Positions 3,276 to 53,112 of a stretch of 64,000 nucleotides of DNA are shown here, piece by piece. The position numbers and the translations under genes were made by a program. The notes below the pieces were generated by a model. It had not been told where the DNA came from, did not search any database, and was given only the letters and a program-made list of their open reading frames with translations. Source of the DNA: a virus (Duplodnaviria; Caudoviricetes); IMG/VR virus record IMGVR_UViG_3300031813_000004, positions 1-64,000 of that record; one strand, given 5' to 3'. Within the stretch, counting starts at the first letter, position 1. Every line of letters starts with the position of its first letter.

Positions 3276-6200
3276 ATGATAAAATTTGACCAATTCAAAT
3301 TATATACACAACAGGTTGATGGTGTAAGATATTTACTTGACCCAGATGCGCCATTTGTAATTTTTTATTTTAGTGAGAATTCATCACTCCTTGAAGATTA
3401 TCATAAACTAAATATAAGATCCGTTGACGTTAGGTATGTTGTAGTTCCGGTTACAAAGGTACCTAGAACTTTCTTTAAACCAGAAGATAAGAAGAAATAT
3501 AGACAATTTAAATTAACTGCATATTCTACACAACAAAAAATACCATCACATACTAATGTTATAGTTGATATATCTAATTATATTGAAGCAGTTGAACATA
3601 GATTTAAACCTTTAAATTGGCGAACAAGATATGGTAATTATTTAACTGATTTAGTTGACCATATATTTTCTCAGTTTCCTTCTAATTATAAAAAGGTTTT
3701 TATTTATTCTGTAAATTCAACTAAATCCCTTCCTGTGTTTGCTAATAGAAAAATATTTCAAACTATTCAACAATTAAAAAGTGGTGATAATTTATTATTT
3801 GATTATATGATGTTAGCTACAGTTAATAGTTCATCGACTAGATACAGATTATTAATGAAAAATAAAGATTATAAATTTAATCTTGTATATAACTGGGTTA
3901 AAAATATTAGAATTGGTAGTCATGAACCAGTTGAAAATGATAATGAATTACCGAATGAACATTCAGAAATAGTACAAAATGCATCTAAAGATGTAATGGA
4001 TAATATAGATAAGACACAACCAGAAATGCAAATTGTTGATAAACCTAAAGTTCATGCAGCAATTTCTTCATTTTTATCAAAAGATAGAAATACTTTAAAT
4101 AAAGTTAATGATAAAGAAAATAATGACGAAGATAATAAAAAGATAGCTATAGCTTCTATTCTATATAAAGTTAATGGTGATTTAGAAAAGTCTAAAAAAA
4201 TATCAAATAAAATTCCTCCATTAAGATTAAGCCAAACATTAGTACATATAGAGAAAAAATATAAAGATGAATTAATGACACCACAACCAATAAATAGTAC
4301 ATCTGAAGAAGATATTATAAAAAGTTCTGATGTTAAAGATATAGTTAATAATAAAGTTCCTAGTCATTTATTTAAGAAAAGACAGATTGACTTTGCTGTT
4401 AATTTAAAGAAAGATTCTGAAAATTCATTCAATGTTTTGAATAAAACTGACTTACCATTAAAAGTTGAAAAAATTGAATTAATTGATAAACCAACAAAAA
4501 ATACAGAATTAAATAAAACTGATATGGTTGTATTGAAAACAACTTTAATAGATTCATTTGGTAACTCACATCAAATTAATATTGACTTACCAAGAATTGA
4601 TGAATATGGTACGTTTAGAGTTAATGGAAAAAGAAAATGTTTGATTAATCAAATTGTTTTAAATCCAATAACATTTCCAGAAGAATTTGACTCAAGATTT
4701 ACAAGTTCATATTCCAGTTTTCATATATGGAGTAAGAGATCTAGAAAGTTAAGATACCTTGAAATTTATATGGCTAACTATACATTACCATATTCAATAT
4801 GTACTTTTTTCTTGTTTGGATTTGAAAAAACATTGAAAGATTATGATATACATTATGAAATAGTGGACTCTACCCCCACAAAATTACCATATACATGTCT
4901 TATATCACCTAACCGATACATAGTATTCAGTAATGTAAACACCCCTCTTAAAGAGGAATTTTGCGAGTCATTTACACATGCAAAAATTATAGATTACAAA
5001 GTATTAAAACAATTTGGAACTAAAGAATATTTTAATGATTTAATTATTAAGATGACAGGAAGAACTAATGCAACATATGCATTATCAAATAATAAAGAAA
5101 ATTTAATAGATCCAGTTGTCGAACAAGTTTTAGCAAATAAACAAATGCCAATTAAATTAGACGAAATAATGAAATTTATGGCAATTAAAGTTATTGAAGG
5201 ATATACAACTGATAGAAATAGTTTAGATCATCAAAGAATTAGAAACTCAGAGGTTTTAATTCACTTAATACAAAAACAAGTACATGCTGCTTATACAGTT
5301 TATAAAGAACAAGTTTTAGCTGGAAATAAAAATGCTAAATTTACAATTCCTCAAGCTAAAATATTAAGTGATTTTATTAACTCTGAAATTGTTACAGATA
5401 TTGAATTTGCAAATCCAATTGAAGAAATGTCTACAATGACAAGAATGTCTCCAGTTGGCAAAGCAGTTGGTGGTATACCAAGTAAAGAAGCGATCCAAGT
5501 TGAAGCTAGAAATGTTCATGATTCTTATTTTGGAAATATAGATCCGTTAGATACACCAGAAGGTGCAAATATTGGTATTGTTCAACATTTAACTGTTAAT
5601 GCAGCTTTAACATCATCAAGAGGTTTAATACATACTAAACCAATAAATGACAATGAAAAAGCAGGTATATTATCTACATCATCTTGTCTAATTCCATTCA
5701 TTGAAAATAATGATGGTGCACGTGTTATGATGGCAGTTAACCAAGCGAGACAAGCATTACCATTAAAAAATCCAGAGCCACCTGTTGTTCAATCTGGTTA
5801 TGAATCTTTATTAACAAATGTATTATCTGATAATTATATTAAAAGATCACCCATTGATGGAGTTATTGATCATGTTTCTAATGACTTAATTGTTGTTAAA
5901 GATAAAGCTGGTAGACAATCTAGAATAGGTTTGGAACCTGTTTATTTAAAATCAGGTAGTGGTAAAGATACATTGAGTATTTTTGTACCTAAAGTTAAAA
6001 TTAATCAACATGTTAAAATAGGAACAGTGATTGCAGAAGGTAGTTCTATAGCACAAGGAACTATTGCAATGGGTAGAACTTTATGTGTTGCAGTAATGCC
6101 ATATAAAGGATATAACTTTGAAGATGGTGTTGTTATAAATGAAAGATTAATAAAAGAAGACAAATTAACATCAGTTCATGGAATTGAAGAAGAAGTTTTA

Positions 6201-7715: not shown

Positions 7716-8891
7716 ATGTCTATTATAACTCATCTCACTGATACCGACCTTTACGAATTTACAATGCAACAAACCATTTTACATCACTTTCCTGAAGCCA
7801 CTGCAGAATATACATTTAAATGTAGAACCAAAGGAAGAAACTTAGCTCAATATAAAGATCAGATTGAAAAAGAGATAGATCATCTTTGTACTCTTAAATT
7901 TACAGATTATGAATTACAGTGTTTATCTAATCTTGATTATATGAAAAAAGATTATATTCAATTTCTTAAACTCTTTCAGTTAAATAGAGATTATATTAAA
8001 TTTGATACAAATGGAGATGAATTAATTTGTAGAATTTCAGGACCAATGCTTCACGCTACCACATTTGAAGTTTATACTCTTGCAATTATAAATGAGGTAT
8101 ATTTTAGAAACGAAATAGCAGTTGCAAATGGTTCAGAAGGTAATCGTAGATTACATGAAAAAATCTATCAAATTTTAGAACATCCAAATTCATCAGGTTT
8201 TCGTCTTGCTGAATTTGGAACAAGAAGGCGTTTTTCTAAGGAGAATCAATTACGAGTAGTATCAACACTTCAAAAAGAATTACCACATAATTTAATAGGA
8301 ACTAGTAATGTATATCTAGCTTTTTTATTAGGTTTAACTCCTATTGGAACTATGGCTCATAAATATTTACAAGCATGCCAACAGATGGGGGTTAGACTAG
8401 ATCAAAGTCAAAAATTTGCATTTGAGACATGGGTTAAAGAATATCGAGGAAGATTAGGAATTGCTTTAACTGATGTTGTAGGTATGGATGCATTCCTAAA
8501 AGATTTTGATTTGTATTTTGCAAAACTTTTTGATGGTGTTAGACATGACTCTGGTGATCCTTTTATATGGGCAGAAAAAGCCATTAATCATTATCGTAAT
8601 ATGAGAATAGATCCAAGAACTAAAAGTTTAGTTTTTAGTGATGGATTAGATGTACCAAGAGCATTAGCTTTATACGATAGATTTAAAAATGATGCGATTA
8701 CCACTTTTTGTATTGGAACAAATTTGAGTAATGATTTAGGGTATACCCCTCTTAACATTGTAATTAAAATGGTTAGTTGTAATGGGCAACCAACTGCTAA
8801 AATTTCTGATAGCCCAGGAAAGGGTATGTGTGAAGACCAAAATTATCTTAAATATTTAGGAAGTGTTTTTGGGATCAAGGAGATTTTATGA
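7716..8891 (+). CDS. pncB: nicotinate phosphoribosyltransferase
   Basis: TDLYEFTM, EFGTRRRFS, GTSNV, GTMAH, RHDSGDP, FSDGLD, KISDSPGK. Confidence 0.93.
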   Translation: MSIITHLTDTDLYEFTMQQTILHHFPEATAEYTFKCRTKGRNLAQYKDQIEKEIDHLCTLKFTDYELQCLSNLDYMKKDYIQFLKLFQLNRDYIKFDTNGDELICRISGPMLHATTFEVYTLAIINEVYFRNEIAVANGSEGNRRLHEKIYQILEHPNSSGFRLAEFGTRRRFSKENQLRVVSTLQKELPHNLIGTSNVYLAFLLGLTPIGTMAHKYLQACQQMGVRLDQSQKFAFETWVKEYRGRLGIALTDVVGMDAFLKDFDLYFAKLFDGVRHDSGDPFIWAEKAINHYRNMRIDPRTKSLVFSDGLDVPRALALYDRFKNDAITTFCIGTNLSNDLGYTPLNIVIKMVSCNGQPTAKISDSPGKGMCEDQNYLKYLGSVFGIKEIL

Positions 8892-9481
8892 CAGATAATG
8901 AAAAGATTTTATGTGGGAATTCTCTACCATTGCCAGAGTTAGAAGAAGATGATGATCGAGATGTTGAAAAAGATGCATCTGATGAATATGACATGTTGAA
9001 TATAATTGATAATATTGGTACTGATGAATTTAAAGAAAATTATTTAATTTCAATTGATGAAATAAGAAAACAATCTATTGAAAATCAAAGAATTTTTTGC
9101 ACTAAGATATTAGATAAAATAAAAGATATTTATGATTTTATTCCTTTAGAGAAATATTCATTGAATGAACAACCTCAATGTGACGGAATATATAAATTTA
9201 TTGAATTCTTAGAATTTAACAATTTGATTTTTTTATCTAATCTTTGGCATGACTTTAAAATTGATTTAAGAAAATTAGATATTAAAGACTTTTGTAATGA
9301 AAATTCAGATAGGTTTATGACATTAATTGATAATCAAGTTAAACTAAATAATTATCCTCAGCTGGTTAAGGAGTTCTTGAGAACAAATATAAAAGAAAAG
9401 ATGATTAACTTCATCATCTCGAAAACAGAGAAGGAAAGAATGTTAATACAATTAGAAATTACATTAAAAGGAGAAGAGTAA
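8888..9481 (+). CDS. hypothetical protein
   Basis: ORF with RBS, overlapping the pncB stop. Confidence 0.7.
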   Translation: MTDNEKILCGNSLPLPELEEDDDRDVEKDASDEYDMLNIIDNIGTDEFKENYLISIDEIRKQSIENQRIFCTKILDKIKDIYDFIPLEKYSLNEQPQCDGIYKFIEFLEFNNLIFLSNLWHDFKIDLRKLDIKDFCNENSDRFMTLIDNQVKLNNYPQLVKEFLRTNIKEKMINFIISKTEKERMLIQLEITLKGEE

Positions 9482-9483
9482 AC

Positions 9484-9747
9484 ATGGACGTGAATCAGTA
9501 TACGGTTACGATTAAGAAAGGGAGTTTGGTATTCAAAGTTGATAGAACGGATTTAGTGAATATTGAACATACGTCAGATGGTCTGGTATTTAATCTCAAA
9601 CATCAAACATATATTAATATTACAGATCAATATATGCCATTAGATGTTAAACAGAAAGTGAAGAGTGCAGATGCAATTCCAAATGGTAATGTAACTTTTG
9701 ATTTAAATAATTATAGAAATCCAGTTTCAGTTCAGATCAAAAATTAA
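9484..9747 (+). CDS. hypothetical protein
   Basis: ORF with RBS. Confidence 0.7.
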   Translation: MDVNQYTVTIKKGSLVFKVDRTDLVNIEHTSDGLVFNLKHQTYINITDQYMPLDVKQKVKSADAIPNGNVTFDLNNYRNPVSVQIKN

Positions 9748-9762
9748 GGATTCTAAGAAGTG

Positions 9763-9780
9763 CTATATATATTAATTATT
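9763..9780 (+). promoter_or_regulatory. copy of CTATATATATTAATTATT motif
   Basis: Exact match to 7429-7446. Confidence 0.5.
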
Positions 9781-9922
9781 GAATAGAAAATATTTTGGTT
9801 TATGTTTCCCGAGGACATGAATCGAAAAAAAATTTGGAGGTGAATTATGCATTGGTAATTAATATTATTTAGGAATGAGATTAAACTTCAGAGATTTTTG
9901 AAAAGAGCATGTAGTAAAAATG

Positions 9923-9960
9923 ATGGAGTGGACATAGAATAGCGGCTATGTCCACTCCAT
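9923..9960 (+). terminator. strong GC-rich hairpin
   Basis: ATGGAGTGGACATAG...CTATGTCCACTCCAT inverted repeat. Confidence 0.55.
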
Positions 9961-10010
9961 ACATTCGTTAAAAATTTAAAGAATATATTTTTTAAGTATT
10001 CTTAAATTAG

Positions 10011-10028
10011 TTATATATATAAATTATT
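10011..10028 (+). promoter_or_regulatory. near-copy of the motif (TTATATATATAAATTATT) upstream of the candidate ncRNA and tRNA cluster
   Basis: 16/18 identity to the other two copies. Confidence 0.45.
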
Positions 10029-10150
10029 GAGATAAAGGAATTTGGCTTTGTCTTAAATGTAGTAGAAGTAAAAGTAGTAACCTTTCTTCCTATGGAACCT
10101 AAGGGTAGTGATGACCAAATGTTCACTATCCTTAGGAACTCCATAGAAGT

Positions 10151-10509
10151 AGATTTGTTATTAGTAGTGTTATTCCAAGTTGTTTAAAATAAAGGATCGT
10201 ACAAAAGATATCCGAGCCGGTCTACTCTGATATTAGAAATGGATCTACCGATAATGAGTTGGTCTTCCGTAAAATTCCCGGATGATTGAAATATATCATT
10301 CGGCAAAATTTCGGAAGACTTTAGGCCCCTCCAAGTGTGGAGTGCTGCCTCCTTCGACATCCCGGATCTGGAATATATGTCCCGGCGCATTAAACTCATT
10401 TGATTCACTCTTATAAAAACGATCGCCTTAACGGAGGAAACCGGTAATTAATGTAACCTAGGGACGGTTGGTTATCGGGACTTGGAATAACACTAGTAAT
10501 AATAAATCT
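10151..10509 (+). ncRNA. candidate large structured ncRNA (~360 nt)
   Basis: GC-elevated, no credible ORF; 30-bp terminal inverted repeat 10151-10180/10480-10509 and multiple internal helices. Strand is assumed from context. Confidence 0.6.
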
Positions 10510-10526
10510 TAGAAAGGAATAACATT

Positions 10527-10784
10527 ATGAAATTAATGTGTTGTACTAAATGTGGAGATGTTGTAAGTTTAAGAAGTGATGAAAGAAGTTGTTTTTGTGG
10601 AGAAAGTAAAGGGAAATATAAAGAAGATGGTTTAAATGCAATAATATCAGGGCCATGTATTCCTTTAGGGTTTGCTAATAGTTCTTTCATCAATGCTTTA
10701 AAAAATCAACCTGAAAGGGGAATGGGCAAAGAGTTTACTGCATTTGTAATACAAAAACAATGCAATACAATTGAAATTGTTTAG
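10527..10784 (+). CDS. small Cys-rich (Zn-ribbon) hypothetical protein
   Basis: CxxCGD..CxCG motifs; RBS AAGGA. Confidence 0.7.
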   Translation: MKLMCCTKCGDVVSLRSDERSCFCGESKGKYKEDGLNAIISGPCIPLGFANSSFINALKNQPERGMGKEFTAFVIQKQCNTIEIV

Positions 10785-10833
10785 CCATTTTTAAATGTAA
10801 AGAGAACATATTATACATCTTAAAAAATAGCAA

Positions 10834-10921
10834 GGAGAATTGACCGAGTCAGGTTTATGGTGCCAGTCTTGAAAACTGGAGGACGAAAGTTCCGTGGGTT
10901 CAAATCCTACATTCTCCGCCA
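10834..10921 (+). tRNA. tRNA-Ser(TGA)
   Basis: Cloverleaf with long variable arm, anticodon loop CT-TGA-AA, GGTTCAAATCC, CCA end. Confidence 0.93.
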
Positions 10922-10933
10922 AATTGTTTAAAA

Positions 10934-11019
10934 GGAGATGTGTCCGAGTGGTTGAAGGAGAGGGACTGTAAATCCCTTCTGTAAAAAGCGCTATGGTTCA
11001 AATCCATACATCTCCACCA
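10934..11019 (+). tRNA. tRNA-Tyr(GTA)
   Basis: GGAGATG/CATCTCC acceptor, loop CT-GTA-AA, CCA end. Confidence 0.93.
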
Positions 11020-11061
11020 AAATAATTTTTGTAGTAAAATCAAAAATGAAAGGAGCTAATT

Positions 11062-11217
11062 ATGTTTGTATGTGAATCCTGTAAAGAGCAGCAAGGACCT
11101 GGAGTTCCCTCCCACAAGAAGGTTGTAGAAACTCGCCCTGCATTTTATCCCAATAACAAGACTGGTACTGAAATCGTCAAAGAAATCACCGTCTGCGACA
11201 AGTGCTTGACAGTTTAA
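11062..11217 (+). CDS. 51-aa Zn-ribbon protein
   Basis: RBS AAAGGAG; MFVCESC...GTEIVKEITVCDKC; not in the ORF track. Confidence 0.7.
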   Translation: MFVCESCKEQQGPGVPSHKKVVETRPAFYPNNKTGTEIVKEITVCDKCLTV

Positions 11218-11337
11218 AAGTTTAAGAAGCTGCTGGATACTAATCATATTATTTAGTGAAGCCTTAAATAATTCTAGTTAATTGTCCAAAGAGCTGAAGA
11301 TATACTAGATAAGTCTTTAGTTCACAACCAAATGTAA

Positions 11338-11423
11338 GGGCGGGTATCCGAATGGCACAGGAATCAGACTTAAAATCTGCCGGAGAAGCAATTCTCTTGG
11401 GGGTTCGAATCCCCCTCCGCCTA
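11338..11423 (+). tRNA. tRNA-Leu(TAA)
   Basis: Loop CT-TAA-AA, long variable arm, GGGGGTTCGAATCCCCC; no encoded CCA. Confidence 0.88.
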
Positions 11424-11459
11424 CATTTGAACTTTCTAATTAAAAAAGGATTTTAAAAT

Positions 11460-12269
11460 ATGGATATTGTTGAAGAAATTTTTGATTTGTATGTAAATCA
11501 ATTAATTCCTATCGACAGTATCCATCTAAAATTAAGACCAAGAATAACTATTAGAGAAGTTTATAATATTTGTAATAACTTCAAAGAACAACGTAAAAAA
11601 TTTAGAAAAGAAAACCCGAGAAATAAAAGAGTTTTGCCACATGTTAATTTTTGTTGTATTTATTGTCATAAAGAAATGAATATAAATCCAGACCAAGGAT
11701 TATTAGCACATTTAGGTCATTGTAAAGTTTACAGAGAATTAAACAATAGAGGAATAAGACCAGATGATTTTGGTGATAATAGAGCTTGGAATAGAGGATT
11801 AAAAATTGGAGATAATGAATCTTTAGATAAATTTTATTATTCTGGAAGAAAATCTTTAATTAATAAATATGGAACTGTAGCTGGTCCATTAATAGAATGG
11901 AATAAAACCAAAAATGATTTTAAACATATAAAATATGATGGTAAAGAAATAAGTTTTAGATCTGGTTGGGAATTACAATTAGCAAAAATTTTAGAAAGTG
12001 AAAAAATAAATTATAAATATGAAGAATTAAGATTTGAGTATTTTCATACAGATCAAAATAAGTTAAGAAAATATATACCTGATTTTTATTTACAAGATTA
12101 TAATCTAATTATCGAATTTAAATTAAAACAAAATCTTAATAATTGGACAAATGAAAAGCGAGATTCTGTTAAAAATTCTGGTTATAATTTTACATATGTG
12201 ACAGAAAAAGAATGTAATAAAGATAGTCTTTTAGATATTATTTATAACAAGAATTATAAAGATAGTTAA
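11460..12269 (+). CDS. free-standing PD-(D/E)XK homing-endonuclease-like protein within the tRNA cluster
   Basis: CxxC..H..HC, AWNRGL, FRSGWE..YE..YIPDFYL..IIEFK. Confidence 0.75.
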   Translation: MDIVEEIFDLYVNQLIPIDSIHLKLRPRITIREVYNICNNFKEQRKKFRKENPRNKRVLPHVNFCCIYCHKEMNINPDQGLLAHLGHCKVYRELNNRGIRPDDFGDNRAWNRGLKIGDNESLDKFYYSGRKSLINKYGTVAGPLIEWNKTKNDFKHIKYDGKEISFRSGWELQLAKILESEKINYKYEELRFEYFHTDQNKLRKYIPDFYLQDYNLIIEFKLKQNLNNWTNEKRDSVKNSGYNFTYVTEKECNKDSLLDIIYNKNYKDS

Positions 12270-12277
12270 TTTCACCT

Positions 12278-12358
12278 TATCGTGTAGCTCAGATACTTAG
12301 AGCGCCCTCACCATAAATGACAAGAGGGAGGTCGGATCCTTGTAGAATCCCACGATAA
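12278..12358 (+). ncRNA. aberrant tRNA-like RNA or tRNA pseudogene
   Basis: Acceptor TATCGTG/CACGATA, D arm TAGCTCAG..AGAGC, stem CCCTC/GAGGG with a 14-nt loop, non-canonical T loop. Confidence 0.55.
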
Positions 12359-12368
12359 TCAAATTTAT

Positions 12369-12445
12369 TCCCATTTAACTCAGTTGGGTAGAGTGTCTGA
12401 CTGTTAATCAGAATGTCCGTGGTTCGAGCCCACGAATGGGAGCCA
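12369..12445 (+). tRNA. tRNA-Asn(GTT)
   Basis: Loop CT-GTT-AA, GGTTCGAGCCC, CCA end. Confidence 0.93.
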
Positions 12446-12493
12446 ATTAAAAATTTTTAATCACAACTAAATAACTCTAAAAAAGGAATAAAA

Positions 12494-12751
12494 ATGAAAA
12501 AATTATTTTTGACTTTATTAATGGGACTTATTTTTTCAATTAACTCATTTGCAGTAGATGCAGTTGATATTAATACTGCAACTGAAGCACAACTCCGTGT
12601 TGTTCCAGGGATTGGTCAGGTATATGCAGCAAAGATTATTGCAAATAGACCATATGGTGGAAAAGATGAATTAGTTACAAAAAATATTATACCTAAAGCA
12701 CTTTACCCAAAAGTTAAAGATAAGTTAATTGCTAAACAGATTAAGAAATAG
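12494..12751 (+). CDS. ComEA-like helix-hairpin-helix DNA-binding protein with signal peptide
   Basis: N-terminal signal peptide; VDINTAT..L..VPGIG..A.KIIANRPY. Confidence 0.85.
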   Translation: MKKLFLTLLMGLIFSINSFAVDAVDINTATEAQLRVVPGIGQVYAAKIIANRPYGGKDELVTKNIIPKALYPKVKDKLIAKQIKK

Positions 12752-12757
12752 TTTTAA

Positions 12758-12835
12758 GTGCCCTTAGCTCAGCCAGGAAAGAGCAGAAGCCTTCTAAGCT
12801 TAAGGTCACAGGTTCAAATCCTGTAGGGCATACCA
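12758..12835 (+). tRNA. tRNA-Arg(TCT)
   Basis: Loop CT-TCT-AA, GGTTCAAATCC, CCA end. Confidence 0.92.
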
Positions 12836-12860
12836 TTTTTGAACTCACCATAAAAGGTGA

Positions 12861-12897
12861 TAATGATAGTATGGGTTCGATCCCCATTCATTAACCA
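12861..12897 (+). ncRNA. tRNA minihelix-like element (acceptor stem + T arm + ACCA)
   Basis: TAATGA-tagt-ATGGG-TTCGATC-CCCAT-TCATTA-ACCA. Confidence 0.45.
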
Positions 12898-13061
12898 AGG
12901 ACTGGTGTGAAGGGAGCTAGGTTCAATTCCTAGTGATATGTTCTTTAGTCAATAAACTAAAGATAACTCAGGTGAGACAAATGGTTAGGCCGGCACGACC
13001 TTTAAAGTATTGACGGAATTCAATACAGGTGTGTAGTTATAATTTTTTAAAAGGAAAATCT

Positions 13062-13346
13062 ATGAAAATAATTGAAATTGAAGGTCATAAAATTGGAATA
13101 TTGAATCAACAAGAATATCAAGAAAGAACTATAAATATAGCTAAAGGAATAGAAGTTGAAAATCCTGAATTAAAATTATTTGCATCAGACGAAGAAGGTG
13201 CAAAAAGATGTGTTAAATTAAAAGGAATAGAAAAAGTATTTATTTGTAAAAAAGAAGATTGTAAATATTGTAATATAAATACATTAGATGATACTTGTGA
13301 TGCATTATTAGAAGTACGATTAAAATGTCCAGAATATAATAAATAA
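13062..13346 (+). CDS. hypothetical protein
   Basis: Start moved to the ATG after AAAGGAAAA; Cys-rich C-terminus. Confidence 0.65.
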   Translation: MKIIEIEGHKIGILNQQEYQERTINIAKGIEVENPELKLFASDEEGAKRCVKLKGIEKVFICKKEDCKYCNINTLDDTCDALLEVRLKCPEYNK

Positions 13347-13354
13347 ATTTATCT

Positions 13355-13431
13355 CGGTGTGTAGCGCAGTCTGGCAGCGCACTTGCCTTGGGAGCAAGGG
13401 GCCGGAGGTTCGAATCCTCTCACACCGACCA
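13355..13431 (+). tRNA. tRNA-Pro(TGG)
   Basis: CGGTGTG acceptor, loop CT-TGG-GA, CCA end. Confidence 0.95.
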
Positions 13432-13442
13432 ATTTTTAATAA

Positions 13443-13518
13443 GCCGGATTAGCTCAGTTGGTAGAGCAGCTGACCTGTAATCAGCTGGTCGCAGGTTCGA
13501 CCCCTGTATCCGGCTCCA
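13443..13518 (+). tRNA. tRNA-Thr(TGT)
   Basis: GCCGGAT acceptor, loop CC-TGT-AA (C33), CCA end. Confidence 0.9.
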
Positions 13519-13526
13519 ATTTTTAA

Positions 13527-13601
13527 AGGGGTGTCGCCAAGTGGTAAGGCATCAGATTTTGATTCTGACATTCAGAGGTTCGACCCCTCTCACCCCTGCC
13601 A
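13527..13601 (+). tRNA. tRNA-Gln(TTG)
   Basis: Loop TT-TTG-AT, CCA end. Confidence 0.93.
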
Positions 13602-13615
13602 TTTAGGAGTTAAAT

Positions 13616-13759
13616 ATGAGAGTTGAATTTGTAGCAAAACGAAAAAATATGTTATACCAAAGAATATTTATATCATCTAGAACACCTATTGGAATAGTAT
13701 TTGATATGATCGATAAATATGAAAAATTAGGTTATATAACTAAATTTAAAGATAATTAA
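13616..13759 (+). CDS. 47-aa hypothetical protein
   Basis: RBS AGGAG; MRVEFVAKRKN... Confidence 0.55.
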   Translation: MRVEFVAKRKNMLYQRIFISSRTPIGIVFDMIDKYEKLGYITKFKDN

Positions 13760-13769
13760 TAAATTTAAT

Positions 13770-13846
13770 GGGTCTTTAGCTCATCTGGTTAGAGCAGCAG
13801 ACTCATAATCTGCAGGTGCTCGGTTCGACTCCGAGAGGACCCACCA
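13770..13846 (+). tRNA. tRNA with CAT anticodon (likely Ile2; elongator Met possible)
   Basis: Loop CT-CAT-AA; body resembles bacterial tRNA-Ile2; CCA end. Confidence 0.9.
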
Positions 13847-18035: not shown

Positions 18036-18968
18036 ATGATTGAAGAATATGCTGAACTAATGGGAACAGGTCACGAATCAAAAGAAATTGTAAAACCAGA
18101 GGATGAGTTTTTTCATTCAGTTTATATCGCTGGAACTAGTAGAAAAAATCATATTGATATTGTTGAAAGTGCAGGAAAACTTCAAGTTAGAGGTGTTGAA
18201 TATAATAAAGATAAAGTTCATATGATTGTAACTCATGTGAAAAGAGTTTTAGTTAAAATTAAAACAGATGAAAAAACTAAAAAAGATAAGACTGAATGTT
18301 TTTCATTTCAACAAGGAACTCCTCCGTGGCATGGTTTTAATAATAGAGTATGCGGACAAAATGCAACAGAAAGAGCATCTAATGACTTTTGTAAAGATTG
18401 TAAGGGCCAGATTATTTTGGCAGGTATTTATACAGATGAGCATGGTAATCCAATTTTAAGCGAAGAAAAGAAACCCACCTTTGTATTTATTAGAGGTAAA
18501 GGAATGAAATATTCTGGTGTTTCTACATATCTTGATGAATTATCAAAAATGGAATTAGATCCAATTTTTACACCAGTAACAGAAGAAACTAAAAGATTTG
18601 AAAAGAATGTTGTTAATAATAAAAGATTCGTAACTGGAATTTCAATCGGAACACAAGATTCCAAATATGGAATTAAACAAGTTTTTAAATTAGAAACAGG
18701 AGTTAAACTTCCAACTGAAAAAGTTCATTCAATTCTTAAATTAGCAAAGAAAACAATTGAAAAATTCAATGAAAAATTTGACGAAAGTAGTAGAGGAAAT
18801 AATAATGCAGCATCAAGTTATATTGAAGAGACACATCATGTAGATAACTCTAATAAATTTAATGATACATCTAATCATGAAGCTCCTATTACAAATTCAC
18901 AAGCAACAACACAGTCTAAAGTCGAAGAACCAAGTGTTTCATTTAATTTTGAGGATGTAGAATTTTAA
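18036..18968 (+). CDS. putative ssDNA-binding or recombination protein
   Basis: Cys cluster, low-complexity linker and acidic-aromatic tail FNFEDVEF as in phage SSBs. Confidence 0.45.
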   Translation: MIEEYAELMGTGHESKEIVKPEDEFFHSVYIAGTSRKNHIDIVESAGKLQVRGVEYNKDKVHMIVTHVKRVLVKIKTDEKTKKDKTECFSFQQGTPPWHGFNNRVCGQNATERASNDFCKDCKGQIILAGIYTDEHGNPILSEEKKPTFVFIRGKGMKYSGVSTYLDELSKMELDPIFTPVTEETKRFEKNVVNNKRFVTGISIGTQDSKYGIKQVFKLETGVKLPTEKVHSILKLAKKTIEKFNEKFDESSRGNNNAASSYIEETHHVDNSNKFNDTSNHEAPITNSQATTQSKVEEPSVSFNFEDVEF

Positions 18969-18987
18969 ACTAAATCATACAACCAAT

Positions 18988-19016
18988 AATGGGATAGACT
19001 AAAAATCTATCCCATT
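18988..19016 (+). terminator. hairpin terminator
   Basis: AATGGGATAGA...TCTATCCCATT. Confidence 0.55.
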
Positions 19017-19026
19017 CTGTACAAAA

Positions 19027-19320
19027 TAATACTTTGAAAGATCTGATATTCATCTATAATTATTTTTAGATGTACCTAACATATCCAAAAGATATGTATG
19101 GATTCACTTTTTAAAAGTGAAGTATTAAGACTAGGGTCATTAAAGTCTCATTGACTTTAAAGTCCAGTAATAGAGGTACGATTAATGACGTTAGAATGCA
19201 CATGCTCAGTTCTAACTAAGAAGATTTAATAACCCATTAAGATGTTAAGAAAATTAAATCAACTCTATTGCTAATCCCGAGAGCAAGATTAGATTTTTAC
19301 TCATCTTTTCTAAATGAAAT
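19027..19320 (+). ncRNA. omegaRNA scaffold upstream of isrB
   Basis: TAATACTT/AAGTATTA stem closed just before GACTAG; GTCATTAA/TTAATGAC; AGTAATAGAG/CTCTATTGCT; TTAGAA..TTCTAA hairpin whose loop TGCTC can pair with GAGCA. 3' boundary approximate. Confidence 0.7.
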
Positions 19321-19362
19321 AAATCAACAAACAAACCTGTATAAGGGAGATTTAAAAAAGAG

Positions 19363-20511
19363 ATGAAAGATGTAATAATTAGAATTCCAGCAGTTTATAA
19401 AAATATTCCTTTAATGCCAATGAAATTGAAGAAATGTTTAAAATTTGAAAAATTAGGAAAAGGAAAATTTAGATTTAATAATAAATTAAAAATAAGATAT
19501 TTTGAATTATTATTTGAACCATCTGGATATGATTTACAACCATTAAATCTTGGTATTGATCCAGGTAGTCATTTCGATGGTTTTAGTATTACAAGTAAAT
19601 ATTGTCATCATCATAATTTTCAATTAAACCATAATAAAGAAATTAAAGATTTAATGGATCGTAGAAGAATGTATAGAAAATTAAGAAGATCTAGATTAAG
19701 ACATCGTAAAATAAGATTTAGTTATAGGACTTCTAAAAAATTAGTACCAACTATTAATTCTATGGTTGAATTTAGAAAATGGATGATTAAAAAGATTCTA
19801 GAGATTTATCCAATTAAACGAATTGTTATAGAAGATGTTAAATATAATCATTTTAAAGATAATAAAGGATCTAGTTTTAGTCAGGTTGAAATTGGTAAAA
19901 CAAAATTATATGAATGGATTAGAAGTAAAAATTTAATTATTCATAAAGTTAAAGGATTTATTACAAAGGCTTTAAGAATTAAAATTTTTGGATTTGATCC
20001 TAAATTAAAAGATAAATCAATTAAAGATTTTAATAGTCATTCTATAGATAGTTTTGTTATTTCAACTTTATTATTAAAAAATATTCCAAAAGCACACAAA
20101 AAACTCATTGATATTACAAAAGTATTTTATATTAGAAGATATCTATATCAATTTAGATGTTTAAAAAAAGATAAAAAATATTATTTTAGATATATTAAAG
20201 GGGGAATTAAAAAAATATTTATTAAAATGAGTAAATTTTCTATTTGTAGAATTAAATTAGAAGGAGATCATTCTAATCATCCTAAAAAATGGAATTATAT
20301 TAATAATGGAAAAGTGGAATGTTTTAAAAAATATAAAAATTTATACGGAGGAACTAGTAGATTTGGTATTTCTAAATATATGATGTTTAAAGATTTATTA
20401 AAAAATGAAATTTATAAAATAACAAATACAAAATCGTATAAATTTTTATATGAAAATTCGAATAGATTTAAACTTATTGGGTATAATAATCAAAATATTA
20501 TTATATTTTAA
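19363..20511 (+). CDS. isrB: IsrB (IS200/IS605 OMEGA RuvC nickase, no HNH)
   Basis: PLMP motif, RuvC-I LGIDPG, Arg-rich bridge helix, RuvC-II IEDV, RuvC-III SHSID; no HNH insert. Confidence 0.88.
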   Translation: MKDVIIRIPAVYKNIPLMPMKLKKCLKFEKLGKGKFRFNNKLKIRYFELLFEPSGYDLQPLNLGIDPGSHFDGFSITSKYCHHHNFQLNHNKEIKDLMDRRRMYRKLRRSRLRHRKIRFSYRTSKKLVPTINSMVEFRKWMIKKILEIYPIKRIVIEDVKYNHFKDNKGSSFSQVEIGKTKLYEWIRSKNLIIHKVKGFITKALRIKIFGFDPKLKDKSIKDFNSHSIDSFVISTLLLKNIPKAHKKLIDITKVFYIRRYLYQFRCLKKDKKYYFRYIKGGIKKIFIKMSKFSICRIKLEGDHSNHPKKWNYINNGKVECFKKYKNLYGGTSRFGISKYMMFKDLLKNEIYKITNTKSYKFLYENSNRFKLIGYNNQNIIIF

Positions 20512-20571
20512 CTAAACTAATAATACAAACCATAATTTAACTTTTTAAATTATGATACAAAGGAGATAATA

Positions 20572-21801
20572 ATGGCTAAGGCGGAAGAACAGAAGTATTT
20601 CGAAAGACTAAATATCAATGTTTCTAATATCTCTAAAATTAAACAACTAATTAAAACAACTATCCTTCATACTATTAGATCTTGGGAAAAAGGTCGAGAT
20701 ATTGAAAAACAGACTTTCCATATTATTGGTCCTGCTGGCGTAGGTAAAACACAAATATGTGGTCAGATATCAAAAGAATTAAGTGAAGAATTAAAAATTA
20801 ATTTTGAAAATAAGATTATTAAAGCTCCTGTTCTTTCCAGAGACGATTTTATTATTCCCTTCCCAATAATTGATAAAGAAGGTTCTACATCATTCAAAAT
20901 GTTATATTCAGATTTTATGCCAAAAAATAAAGATAGTTTTGGTCTATTTGTAATAGATGAATGTAGTAGAGGGGATCATAACCTTCAACAATTATTGTGG
21001 CAGGTTCAAAATGAAAATAAAATACATCTAGAGGAAATGCCTAAAGGTTGGTTTGTTATAGCAATTGATAATCCTGATGATCAAGAATATAGTATGGATA
21101 CAATGGAAGATGCAGCAGGTTTGAGAAGAATGCTACATATCTATACAGAAGTTTCAGTAAATGATTTTCTAACTCATGCAATTCAAGAAAAATTCCACCC
21201 TTTAGTAATAGAGTTCATTCAAACAAATCCCAATTATATTTATGATTATGATGCCCAGAAAATGGGTTCTGTTTATGCTAATCCTGCATCATATGAAAGA
21301 GTTTCAAACTTACTATGGATGTATGAATTGAATAATGGAATTAGAGAAAATTTAAATGATTTAGAAATCCTTTTTGCTGGTCTTTTAAATGTTCATAAAA
21401 CAAGATTATTTATTGATTTTATCAGAGATAAAAAAGGTGTTAATCCAAAAGATATATTCTTTGAATATGAAGAAAAGAAAGTTAGGGCTGTAATTTTAGA
21501 ATTTGTTAGAAAGAATGATAATGCAAGTTTAGGTGAAGTAATGGTTGCGTTTACAACATATTTAATTTCAAGTAAACCAGATTTTACAGATAAAGAAATT
21601 ACAAATGTTATTAAGTTTTTAACAGATATACCTGTAGATACAGCAGCAATATTTGTATTGTATATTGATAAACTTGAAAGAACATCTCAAGAATTTAGAT
21701 ATTATACAAAGTTTCAGATGGAACTTATGAAAAATACTTATTATAAAAAAGAATTTTATGAGGTCCTCCTGGAAACTAGAAAGAGAGAAGAAAAGAAATG
21801 A
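20572..21801 (+). CDS. MoxR-like AAA+ ATPase
   Basis: Walker A GPAGVGKT, Walker B FVIDE, sensor N and DAAGLRR. Confidence 0.85.
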   Translation: MAKAEEQKYFERLNINVSNISKIKQLIKTTILHTIRSWEKGRDIEKQTFHIIGPAGVGKTQICGQISKELSEELKINFENKIIKAPVLSRDDFIIPFPIIDKEGSTSFKMLYSDFMPKNKDSFGLFVIDECSRGDHNLQQLLWQVQNENKIHLEEMPKGWFVIAIDNPDDQEYSMDTMEDAAGLRRMLHIYTEVSVNDFLTHAIQEKFHPLVIEFIQTNPNYIYDYDAQKMGSVYANPASYERVSNLLWMYELNNGIRENLNDLEILFAGLLNVHKTRLFIDFIRDKKGVNPKDIFFEYEEKKVRAVILEFVRKNDNASLGEVMVAFTTYLISSKPDFTDKEITNVIKFLTDIPVDTAAIFVLYIDKLERTSQEFRYYTKFQMELMKNTYYKKEFYEVLLETRKREEKK

Positions 21802-29057: not shown

Positions 29058-29266
29058 AAGATAAAATTGGTGGAGATATTATAAGAAGAGTTGAAATTGA
29101 TTTAAAGTCATGTGGTAATGAATGCCCATATTATAGAGATGATAAAGATGGATGGCTTAAATGTGATAAATATGATGAATTAATTGAAGATATACCTAGT
29201 TTTGGAGAATTCCCAAAATTTTGTAAATTACAAATAATACATTTGATTGATGAACCAAAATTATGA
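29054..29266 (+). CDS. small Cys-rich paralog (family B)
   Basis: DLKSC..CPYY..CDKY..FPKFCKL. Confidence 0.7.
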   Translation: MKDKIGGDIIRRVEIDLKSCGNECPYYRDDKDGWLKCDKYDELIEDIPSFGEFPKFCKLQIIHLIDEPKL

Positions 29267-29274
29267 GGTGAATT

Positions 29275-29442
29275 ATGTTTAAAGAATATATTTTATTTAT
29301 ATTCGGTATGATATTATTAGGAATTGCAGCTTCATTATCTAATAATAATATTTATTATGCACCATTGTTCGGTTTTACTGGAGCTGCTTTATTAATAATA
29401 TCAGTGACAAAATTTATAAGAAAATGTAATAAATTGGAGTGA
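29275..29442 (+). CDS. small two-TM membrane protein
   Basis: RBS GAGGTG; two hydrophobic stretches; not in the ORF track. Confidence 0.6.
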   Translation: MFKEYILFIFGMILLGIAASLSNNNIYYAPLFGFTGAALLIISVTKFIRKCNKLE

Positions 29443-52284: not shown

Positions 52285-53112
52285 ATGATAAATTGTATCT
52301 TAAATAATAATAATATTTTCTATTTCGATTCATATAATAAAAATTTAATTGCTGGTAAATTTGAATTGAATAATTTTAATAATAAATACGAATATTTAGA
52401 ATTTATGTATAATCCTTTAACTAAAAAAGTAAAATTATTAGAAAGTAAAAAATTTAATATAATTAAATTAGAAGAACAATTATTAAAATTAGACTTTTCT
52501 AATATAATTCCTAATTTAATAATAAAACCAATTGAAAATCCATTTATTAAATTTAAGGAACCACAAATAGTTACTAAAGATGTTATTGAATTATTAAAAG
52601 AATTGAACTCGATAAGGGACTCGATAAGGAACTCGATAGGGGACTCGATAAGGAACTCGATATGGGACTCGATAGGGAACTCGATATGGGTCTCGATAGG
52701 GAACTCGATAGGGGACTCGATAAGGAACTCGATATGGGTCTCGATAAGGAACTCGATAGGGGACTCGATAGGGGACTCGATAGGGGACTCGATAAGGAAC
52801 TCGATAGGGGACTCGATAGGGAACTCGATAGGGGACTCGATAGGGGACTCGATAGGGAACTCGATAGGGGACTCGATAAGGAACTCGATAGAGAACTCGA
52901 TATGGGTCTCGATAGGGAACTCGTTATATTGTTATTTTGCATCATTTGTTTATATTAAATCTTGGAAAGGATTAGAACATCTAGGTGAAAATCCTTGGTT
53001 GCCAAACCAGAAACTATGGAATTTAGGATTTATTCCAAGTTTTGATGATAAAACTTGGAAATTACATTCTGGAAATAAAGCAACTATTGTTTATGAAATG
53101 AATAAAATTTAA
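52285..53112 (+). CDS. hypothetical protein with tetrapeptide repeats (N/D-S-I-G/R/W)
   Basis: + frame with RBS; unique N- and C-termini flank the repeat. Confidence 0.75.
   Translation: MINCILNNNNIFYFDSYNKNLIAGKFELNNFNNKYEYLEFMYNPLTKKVKLLESKKFNIIKLEEQLLKLDFSNIIPNLIIKPIENPFIKFKEPQIVTKDVIELLKELNSIRDSIRNSIGDSIRNSIWDSIGNSIWVSIGNSIGDSIRNSIWVSIRNSIGDSIGDSIGDSIRNSIGDSIGNSIGDSIGDSIGNSIGDSIRNSIENSIWVSIGNSLYCYFASFVYIKSWKGLEHLGENPWLPNQKLWNLGFIPSFDDKTWKLHSGNKATIVYEMNKI
52606..52923 (+). repeat. ~26 x 12-bp coding tandem repeat (RAC-TCG-ATA-DGG)
   Basis: Invariant TCGATA core every 12 nt. Confidence 0.95.

Follow-up and report, generated by a model that had tools for sequence, protein, structure and literature searches.

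Unexplained RNAs, stable or ornate, are a kind already known from beside phage tRNA genes, and we know of no role in infection for T4 RNAC and RNAD, GOLLD or ROOL. RNAC and RNAD (species 1 and 2 RNAs) are stable non-tRNA RNAs from the tRNA region of phage T4 whose roles are unknown (PMC3014915), while GOLLD (RF02032) and ROOL are large structured bacterial or phage RNAs that often lie near tRNAs and in prophages and are perhaps co-transcribed (PMC5737381). Here we describe an element at positions 10151-10509 (+ strand) of a 64,000-nt stretch of DNA (the window) taken from the start of the 150-kb IMG/VR virus record IMGVR_UViG_3300031813_000004 (G000). The record represents an uncultured large phage with 27.6% G+C and an estimated completeness of ~48%, for which 50,697 deposited phage genomes contain no close relative. 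Judged from its sequence, the element probably encodes a structured non-coding RNA (ncRNA) of ~360 nt, the first RNA gene of the tRNA-cluster transcript, which is likely cut out at its closing stem, P1.

A G+C-enriched island closed by a 30-bp stem

The initial annotation had proposed a novel, large and pseudoknotted ncRNA within a G+C-elevated island closed by a 30-bp stem. That stem is present exactly as claimed. A scan for inverted repeats identified the two P1 arms at 10151-10180 (5') and 10480-10509 (3'); these 30-nt arms are 93% complementary and 299 nt apart, with one mismatch and one G-U pair. Apart from P1, a strict scan of the surrounding 9 kb detected only three long-range near-perfect pairs, which are A+T-rich and 19-21 bp long. 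A closing stem of 30 bp is far beyond chance. The island is equally real, as the G+C content of 0.44-0.46 at 10200-10499 reaches the level of tRNA genes, compared with 0.2-0.33 in the flanks. Throughout G000, comparable G+C islands correspond to tRNAs, to the RNA element and to some coding stretches, including a few highly expressed genes.

When folded as a whole, the + strand of the element reaches -119.4 kcal/mol (z = -7.4) and the minus strand -110.2 kcal/mol (z = -5.6). The better fold energy and the G-U pair in P1, standard on the + strand only, favour the + strand as the transcribed one, and all genes surrounding the element lie on this strand as well. The fold score of the whole element owes almost everything to the closing stem. 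Two hairpins are nonetheless significant folds individually, one inside the element (10261-10320, z = -5.6) and the other abutting it on the 5' side (10086-10149, z = -5.8).

Within P1, the minimum free-energy (MFE) fold contains all three nested helices of the initial annotation, exactly where it had placed them. The 5' strand of P2, GAUCGU (10195-10200), pairs with 10419-10424 and is followed by A+CAAAA (10201-10206), right after which comes the P3 hairpin (10207-10234). The 5' strand of P4, UGGAUC (10240-10245), pairs with 10402-10407, and an extension of this helix, AAUGAGUU (10253-10260), pairs with 10393-10400. Next to the extension rises the hairpin arm at 10261-10320, which has two tiers and a fold energy of -25.5 kcal/mol. 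Alignment by MAFFT and local alignment to an invariant block, GAGUGCGCACUC, of two related RNAs described below suggest a P5-like hairpin, GGAGUGCUGCCUCC, at 10339-10352, instead of which the MFE fold uses an alternative hairpin at 10329-10342. A small hairpin, GACAU...AUGUC (10356-10381), may correspond to P6/P7; this is our own, weak reading of its position after P5, where the related RNAs have theirs. The 3' strands of the P4 extension, P4 and P2, together with the junction CUCUUAUAAAA, occupy 10393-10424, and the 3' domain (10425-10479, z = -1.9) comprises a linker, GCC..GGAGGAAA, and the 12-bp P8 hairpin (10441-10478). The core, in part established and in part predicted, would be a multi-helix junction of the order P2-CAAAA-P3-P4(P5,P6/P7)-P2'-linker-P8.

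Searching the window against Rfam 15 at gathering scores returned tRNAs only, and no family matched the element. At E <= 10 with permissive filters, the region 9900-10800 matched only microRNA-precursor models, which fell on the plain hairpin at 10086-10149 and are meaningless. As far as the Rfam models reach, these results exclude ordinary RNase P, GOLLD, ROOL, HEARO, OLE, raiA, tmRNA, introns and small ribozymes. ARAGORN found neither a tRNA cloverleaf nor a tmRNA in 10151-10509.

The longest open reading frame (ORF) on the + strand of the element encodes 44 aa. The minus strand does contain a 74-codon frame that begins with GTG (10184-10408), and the initial annotation had considered that it might prove to be a conserved gene. 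This ORF, however, runs against the direction of all its neighbours, matches nothing in Pfam or PHROG, and was not called by gene callers on three Logan contigs that carry the element. A HMMER search over 1.84 billion representative proteins gave just two matches to it, both repetitive tail-fibre-like proteins of 29% identity, which we judge spurious because their E-values sum four to six weak repeat matches. Its being a real gene is thus extremely improbable.

A conserved slot and its RNA modules

The 197-aa protein encoded upstream of the element (8888-9481, + strand) has four relatives among 5.8 billion proteins, with 41-60% identity, and an alignment of these led us to 18 more loci in JGI metagenomes and IMG/VR. 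Nearly all of the related loci contain a pair of genes for the 197-aa protein and an 87-aa protein (in the window at 9484-9747, + strand), followed by the motif CTATATATATTA(A/C)TA..TGA. There are eight copies of this motif in G000 and three in the window, where 0.51 would be expected; two of these three are situated just upstream of the element (9763 and 10011). We read the motif as a putative phage promoter. In the loci L013, L014, L017, L029 and L035 and in the record G001, RNA modules follow the gene pair and the motif, and the content of modules differs in every relative.

The closest relatives share the long, near-perfect closing stems. L013 and L014 contain G+C-enriched modules with near-perfect closing stems of 30-36 bp, and both have, at the same relative place, an equivalent of a hairpin found at 9923-9960 in the window; in L013 this hairpin stands between two promoter-like motifs ahead of the RNA modules, as it does in the window. 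In the more distant relatives (L017:2220-2700, L029:1080-1620 and L035:6000-6660), the slot holds tRNAs and tRNA-like modules. A conserved leader, GACTTTATGTGATTTCAGA, precedes each of these, its distal part pairing with the trailer, and ARAGORN recognises only one of them as a tRNA. A 508-aa gene comes after the RNA island in L029, L035 and L017, and in L029 a gene with an ARPP-1 domain follows as well. We considered a link to Y RNA and Ro through the 508-aa gene and rejected it, as searches of Pfam, PHROG and PDB gave no match to the gene and G000 contains no homolog of it. The element of the window is one case of a recurrent phage RNA island with modules bracketed by long stems.

Two of the modules are clearly related to each other. 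One is found in L014 (jgi 3300050132 Ga0500022_009555) at 4917-5205, measuring 289 nt with a 33-bp stem, and the other in G001 (IMGVR_UViG_3300040758_000214, a 143-kb record) at ~130833-131067, which equals L050:1379-1612, on the minus strand, measuring 234 nt with a 31-bp stem. They are homologous (BLAST E = 4e-10 and 3e-8) and share the long invariant blocks GGGUCGACAAAAUCUAU, AUCAAGAAGAGUGCGCACUCAUGUCAA and UAGACAAAUCGACCGUC. Between them, base pairs have changed on both sides in P1 (four pairs), P3 (two G-C to A-U) and P4 (C-G/C-G to G-C/U-A), and their U-G pairs in P1 work on the + strand only. Neither module matches Rfam. Each is located upstream of tRNA-Tyr(GUA), and the window RNA is likewise upstream of tRNA-Tyr.

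We consider it rather likely that the window RNA is a divergent member of this L014/G001 family. Its context agrees, with a stem of at least 30 bp around a G+C-enriched core, placed in the slot after the gene pair and the promoter motif and upstream of tRNA-Tyr. The outer stem sequences look alike (AUUU.UUAUUA.., UAUUC.AAG). Moreover, when folded separately, all three RNAs give MFE structures with P1, a 6-bp P2 followed by CAAAA, the hairpin P3, a P4 enclosing hairpins, and a linker with P8 after P2'. P2 is GAUCGU/ACGAUC in the window and GGUCGA/UCGACC in L014 and G001, so that four pairs are identical and two have changed on both sides (G-C to A-U and A-U to U-A), while the unpaired letters around it (CAAAA; AAA..G.C) are kept. 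The two outer pairs of P4 read C-G/C-G in L014, G-C/U-A in G001 and G-C/G-U in the window. A hairpin at the P3 position is common to the three RNAs, and the 3' linker and P8 of the window RNA correspond in place to a GYC..AGRRAAA linker and a hairpin of 5 bp in L014 and G001. MAFFT alone aligns both the stretch from P4' through the junction to P2' and the P5-like hairpin with the family; at ~20 of 25 positions in the former the window matches L014 (UUGAU..ACU.UA.A.AAA.CGA.C). MAFFT/RNAalifold alignments of the window RNA with L014, or with L014 and G001, misplace the 5' half, and the pair counts given here were made by hand.

Local alignment of the interiors of the window and L014 modules gave z = 4.3, a score reached by none of 1000 shuffles, as compared with z <= 1.7 in control alignments with seven other modules, tRNA regions and reverse complements. 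We also wrote a descriptor of the features invariant in L014 and G001, namely a 6-bp helix then CAAAA, and AAA, the complementary strand, then GYC. On both strands of the 150-kb G000 it matched once, at 10195-10200/10419-10424, with ~0.2 matches expected per genome, and in 1.1 Mb of other fetched loci it found the L014 and G001 copies only. A candidate novel structured ncRNA at the head of the tRNA cluster, as initially annotated, thus agrees with our results, as the element has no Rfam match, no conserved ORF, and probable relatives in the same slot of two phages.

The crossing pairings that had led to the RNA being called pseudoknotted fared differently. All three (5, 5 and 7 bp) exist as letters, but they are no more than chance gives, since the 299-nt interior contains 51 complementary 5-mers where shuffles have 54 +/- 8, and 5 complementary 7-mers where shuffles have 3.7 +/- 2.4. 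For two of the three, CCUCC/GGAGG and CCGAUAA/UUAUCGG, neither L014 nor G001 offers a counterpart. The third, CCGGU/ACCGG, links the loop of P3 with the beginning of P8. The linker that follows P2 in L014 and G001 contains a complement (AGGC/GGCAA) of their P3 loops (..GCCU.., ..UUGCC..), and a contact between loop and linker, which would rest on 3-5 bp, is possible.

Several results weigh against our interpretation of the element and of its family membership. The 299-nt interior alone folds no better than shuffles (z = -1.6), a value without weight for or against, given that three real tRNAs from the window score z = -1.7. The three Logan contigs, which come from one study, carry the element with zero differences, and because they are identical the structure of the window RNA is itself without direct covariation support; the homolog and covariation analysis suggested in the initial annotation yielded compensatory changes between L014 and G001 but a window RNA missed by the covariance model built from them. 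That model, R1, scores G001 at 1e-41 but, whether filters were on or off, gave no match to the window locus at E values of up to 10; it rests on two sequences and cannot span the 60-nt extra arm and longer P8 of the window RNA. A two-sequence nhmmer profile of L014 and G001 did not detect the window RNA either, even with all filters off. Local alignment of the window RNA with G001 alone was not significant (z = 1.5, 80 of 1000 shuffles), and the descriptor was written after all three sequences were known.

The failure of profile and covariance-model searches to find a homolog, together with interior helices and complementary words at chance level, is what one would expect of an inverted repeat that arose by chance or recombination around an ordinary spacer and has no function. 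This explanation is nevertheless improbable, given the length and complementarity of the repeat, a G+C island matched in G000 only by RNA genes and a few highly expressed genes, the stability of the two-tier arm, and the syntenic likeness to L014 and G001.

Further searches did not enlarge the family. R1 found nothing in three further related phage records, and blastn of 10000-10560 against the 50,697 phage records gave no match. Exact-word and degenerate RNA-motif scans of IMG/VR returned nothing, or G001 only. A 16-mer scan of genome contigs produced more than 120 chance matches, with none of the 80 loci examined carrying the rest of the RNA, and a module-B pattern scan gave G001 plus two chance matches inside a methyltransferase gene. 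No relatives were found through the loci of the 85-aa ORF that follows the element or of a gene resembling nicotinate/nicotinamide phosphoribosyltransferase (NAPRT-like). We also considered whether the element is connected, as an omega-RNA or PATE-like element, with the window's IsrB locus (18800-20700), and rejected this, since there is no sequence likeness and no HEARO match at that locus; Rfam at E <= 1 yielded no HEARO or other family in 18800-20700, and the upstream region is A+T-rich, unlike the element.

Arms and contents of the modules can be unlinked in these phages. In L014:5202-5590, one and the same arm of ~31 nt (..UCAUUUUUAAGGAUGUCUUAAA..) closes two RNA-like interiors, of 108 and 125 nt, that differ from each other, and the 3' arm of one module and the 5' arm of the next form an 87-nt palindrome. 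In L013, a similar arm (AAGGAUACCUUAAAC) encloses yet another interior.

Such exchangeability would also suit a mobile DNA element or cassette, akin to a miniature inverted-repeat transposable element, inserted between the upstream hairpin and the ribosome site of the following ORF, with the arms as its terminal inverted repeats. Indeed, 30-bp terminal repeats flank an interior whose G+C is unlike that of the genome, TAGAA occurs near both ends of the element, and ATAT abuts both ends in L014. The flanking repeats are, however, inconsistent, being offset by 2 nt in the window and absent in G001; no transposase is linked, and the element is single-copy within the 150-kb G000, with no copy in the 50,697 phage records or in the exact-word scans of IMG/VR. 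Relatives in the same slot have, moreover, diverged while keeping their stems through compensatory changes and G-U pairs that work on one strand. Because compensated, strand-specific stems are a signature of selection on RNA, we regard a mobile DNA element as unlikely.

A bolder variant of our preferred reading, a structured RNA cut out at P1, treats the long inverted repeats as boundaries of exchangeable RNA-gene cassettes, an idea suggested by the identical arms of L014 enclosing different contents. The repeats would then serve both RNase III excision and, as DNA-level homology, the swapping of modules, and the 230-360-nt RNA of the window, L014 and G001 might be a new class of trans-acting phage RNA (ribozyme or ribonucleoprotein scaffold) tied to tRNA supply or repair. 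We offer this as speculation that is more probably wrong than right by a good margin.

Finally, the initial annotation had seen a loose likeness to RNase P elements in permuted order. The RNase P consensus includes conserved regions CR-I and CR-V/P4 and, within AAAGUCC, a GU that is universally conserved. The place of the element would suit an RNase P RNA, circularly permuted or minimal, that serves the tRNA genes next to it, and GGAGGAAACCGG and ACAAAA..GCCGGUCUA loosely recall CR-I and CR-V/P4. In contrast, GGAGGAAACCGG is without the GU of AAAGUCC, the pairing that defines RNase P P4 (AAAGUCC with a bulged U pairing with ACAGAA..CCGGCUUA) was not found, and the proposed 5-bp P4 is at chance level. 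In G001 the motif is not kept, reading AAGAGAAAUCCG, and its CCGG partner is missing as well. No RNase P model of Rfam 15 (bacterial A and B, archaeal, nuclear, minimal) matched even at E <= 10 with permissive filters, although a true circular permutation could escape these models. An RNase P identity is close to refuted.

Proposed transcription and processing, and the neighbouring genes

The element lies in an ORF-free interval of 779 nt (9748-10526) between the 87-aa gene and an 85-aa ORF. The first gene in the local order, preceding the 197-aa gene, is on our own reading of its sequence NAPRT-like (+ strand). Directly 3' of the 87-aa gene is the first promoter-like motif, CTATATATATTAATTATTGA (9763-9782), and a second, TTATATATATAAATTATTGA (10011-10030), is the likely start of the RNA-carrying transcript; both are on the + strand. 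Between these motifs stands the hairpin at 9923-9960 (15-18 bp, z = -6.9), and between the second motif and P1 the long hairpin at 10086-10149 that had already been noted; it consists of two stacked helices, one of 14 and one of 6 pairs, with 3-4 more pairs on the outside, and has a fold energy of -32.5 kcal/mol.

Transcription would start at 10011-10030 and run through the RNA, the small ORF and nine tRNA genes (Ser, Tyr, Leu, Asn, Arg, Pro, Thr, Gln and Met; 10834-13846, + strand). We infer co-transcription with the tRNAs because a search 3' of the element revealed no terminator. P1 may act as a stem for processing and stability, at which host RNase III would cut the RNA from its precursor, as for rRNAs. 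At 30 bp it is long enough for RNase III, whose substrates have two or more helical turns of near-perfect double-stranded RNA. The 48%-complete phage record has no RNase III gene, a further point against this scheme, and we therefore only infer cleavage by the enzyme. Such cleavage would leave a stable RNA, ~300-340 nt long and helical at its end, which after its release may act in trans; our guess is a protein-binding scaffold or decoy tied to tRNA, translation or RNA repair.

RNase III sites in the leaders of phages lambda and T7 uncouple or tune downstream expression, and the element might similarly be a purely cis-acting 5' leader, providing processing or stability to the 85-aa ORF and the tRNAs with no product in trans. 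Its position between a promoter-like motif and a ribosome site would be appropriate, as would the lack of a terminator, and the long stem is its only statistically outstanding feature. We nevertheless think this unlikely, since the L014 and G001 relatives precede other RNA modules and tRNA-Tyr rather than the 85-aa ORF, homologs of that ORF occur elsewhere without the RNA, and a 300-nt G+C-enriched core with conserved junction motifs exceeds the needs of a cleavage site.

The 85-aa ORF itself (10527-10784, + strand) is Cys-rich (CxxC..CxC) and lies outside the RNA, its AAAGGAA ribosome site starting 4 nt past the closing stem. It has 25 homologs of 50-69% identity in unrelated contexts, with no RNA adjoining. 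These are scattered over phage and bacterial contexts, with resolvases or dCMP deaminase as neighbours or on a contig with a TonB receptor, a distribution like that of a mobile small gene.

Within the tRNA cluster, a 269-aa ORF (11460-12269) matches PHROGs of the phage endonuclease I / Holliday-junction-resolvase-like kind (E = 1e-17 to 1e-8); it lies between tRNA-Leu and tRNA-Asn and probably encodes a free-standing endonuclease of the homing type. Another 85-aa ORF amid the tRNA genes (12494-12751) has a signal-peptide-like N-terminus and a helix-hairpin-helix domain (HHH_3, ComEA-like). At 9838-9859, between the first promoter-like motif and the hairpin at 9923-9960, a strong Shine-Dalgarno sequence, GGAGGUGA, precedes a three-codon mini-ORF (AUG CAU UGG UAA), and a similar sequence, GAGGTGAATTATG, is found at 29252-29299. 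Farther away, 52535-52986 contains a tandem array of 12-nt repeats, ~450 nt long and with a G+C content of up to 0.53, which is probably a repetitive coding segment. G000 also encodes a full-length RtcB RNA ligase (E = 2e-50) at 129222-130409, outside the window and far from the element; its presence is consistent with tRNA repair during infection.

Comparison with known RNAs

With T4 RNAC and RNAD the window RNA shares the location of a non-tRNA RNA within a phage tRNA gene region. Those RNAs are much smaller (~120-140 nt) and have no 30-bp closing stem, and we found no sequence or Rfam link between them and the window RNA. The initial annotation had likened the element to GOLLD and ROOL as a large RNA; it is tRNA-adjacent as they often are, but at 230-360 nt for the RNAs described here, compared with ~580-800 nt, it is much smaller, and neither Rfam model matches. 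GOLLD and ROOL have many multistem junctions and pseudoknots, of which the only three known members of the proposed L014/G001/window family give no evidence.

The flanks of bacterial 16S and 23S rRNA pair into an RNase III stem of ~30 bp within a polycistronic precursor that also carries tRNAs. We take such processing stems as our mechanistic model for P1, with the differences that the enclosed RNA is not rRNA and that the stem may stay in the mature RNA. Bacterial RNase P RNA, which acts on tRNA precursors, is ~350-400 nt and thus of similar size, with two loosely alike short motifs, but its defining conserved regions and fold were not found in the window RNA. In Y RNAs (YrlA, bound by Rsr/Ro60), too, the paired ends of the RNA form a long stem that closes a structured domain. 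Bacterial Y RNA loci are linked to RtcB, which the phage of the window also encodes. We rejected membership in this group, because G000 has no TROVE/Ro gene and the element has no Rfam match to Y RNA or YrlA and no tRNA-like fold according to ARAGORN.

The RNAs of L014 and G001 are alike to the window RNA in slot, strand, a 30-33-bp stem, the P2-CAAAA-P3-P4 layout, the 3' junction and the downstream tRNA-Tyr. The window RNA differs in being 70-125 nt longer, with a 60-nt extra arm (10261-10320) that is absent from both L014 and G001 and a longer P8, and its sequence likeness to them is weak. It belongs to no catalogued family; together with the L014 and G001 RNAs it would constitute a small new one.

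In conclusion, to the stable or ornate RNAs already known from phage tRNA regions this locus adds a small and apparently new family of 230-360 nt whose processing signal, the 30-bp closing helix, is unusually clear and can be tested. It also reveals that uncultured A+T-rich phages of one clade use a single conserved slot for differing stem-closed RNA modules. Should these stems indeed act in excision or exchange, they would provide a simple mark for orphan RNA genes in phages and a handle for expressing and studying them. The broader point worth following is that long stems may bracket exchangeable RNA modules in phage tRNA islands.

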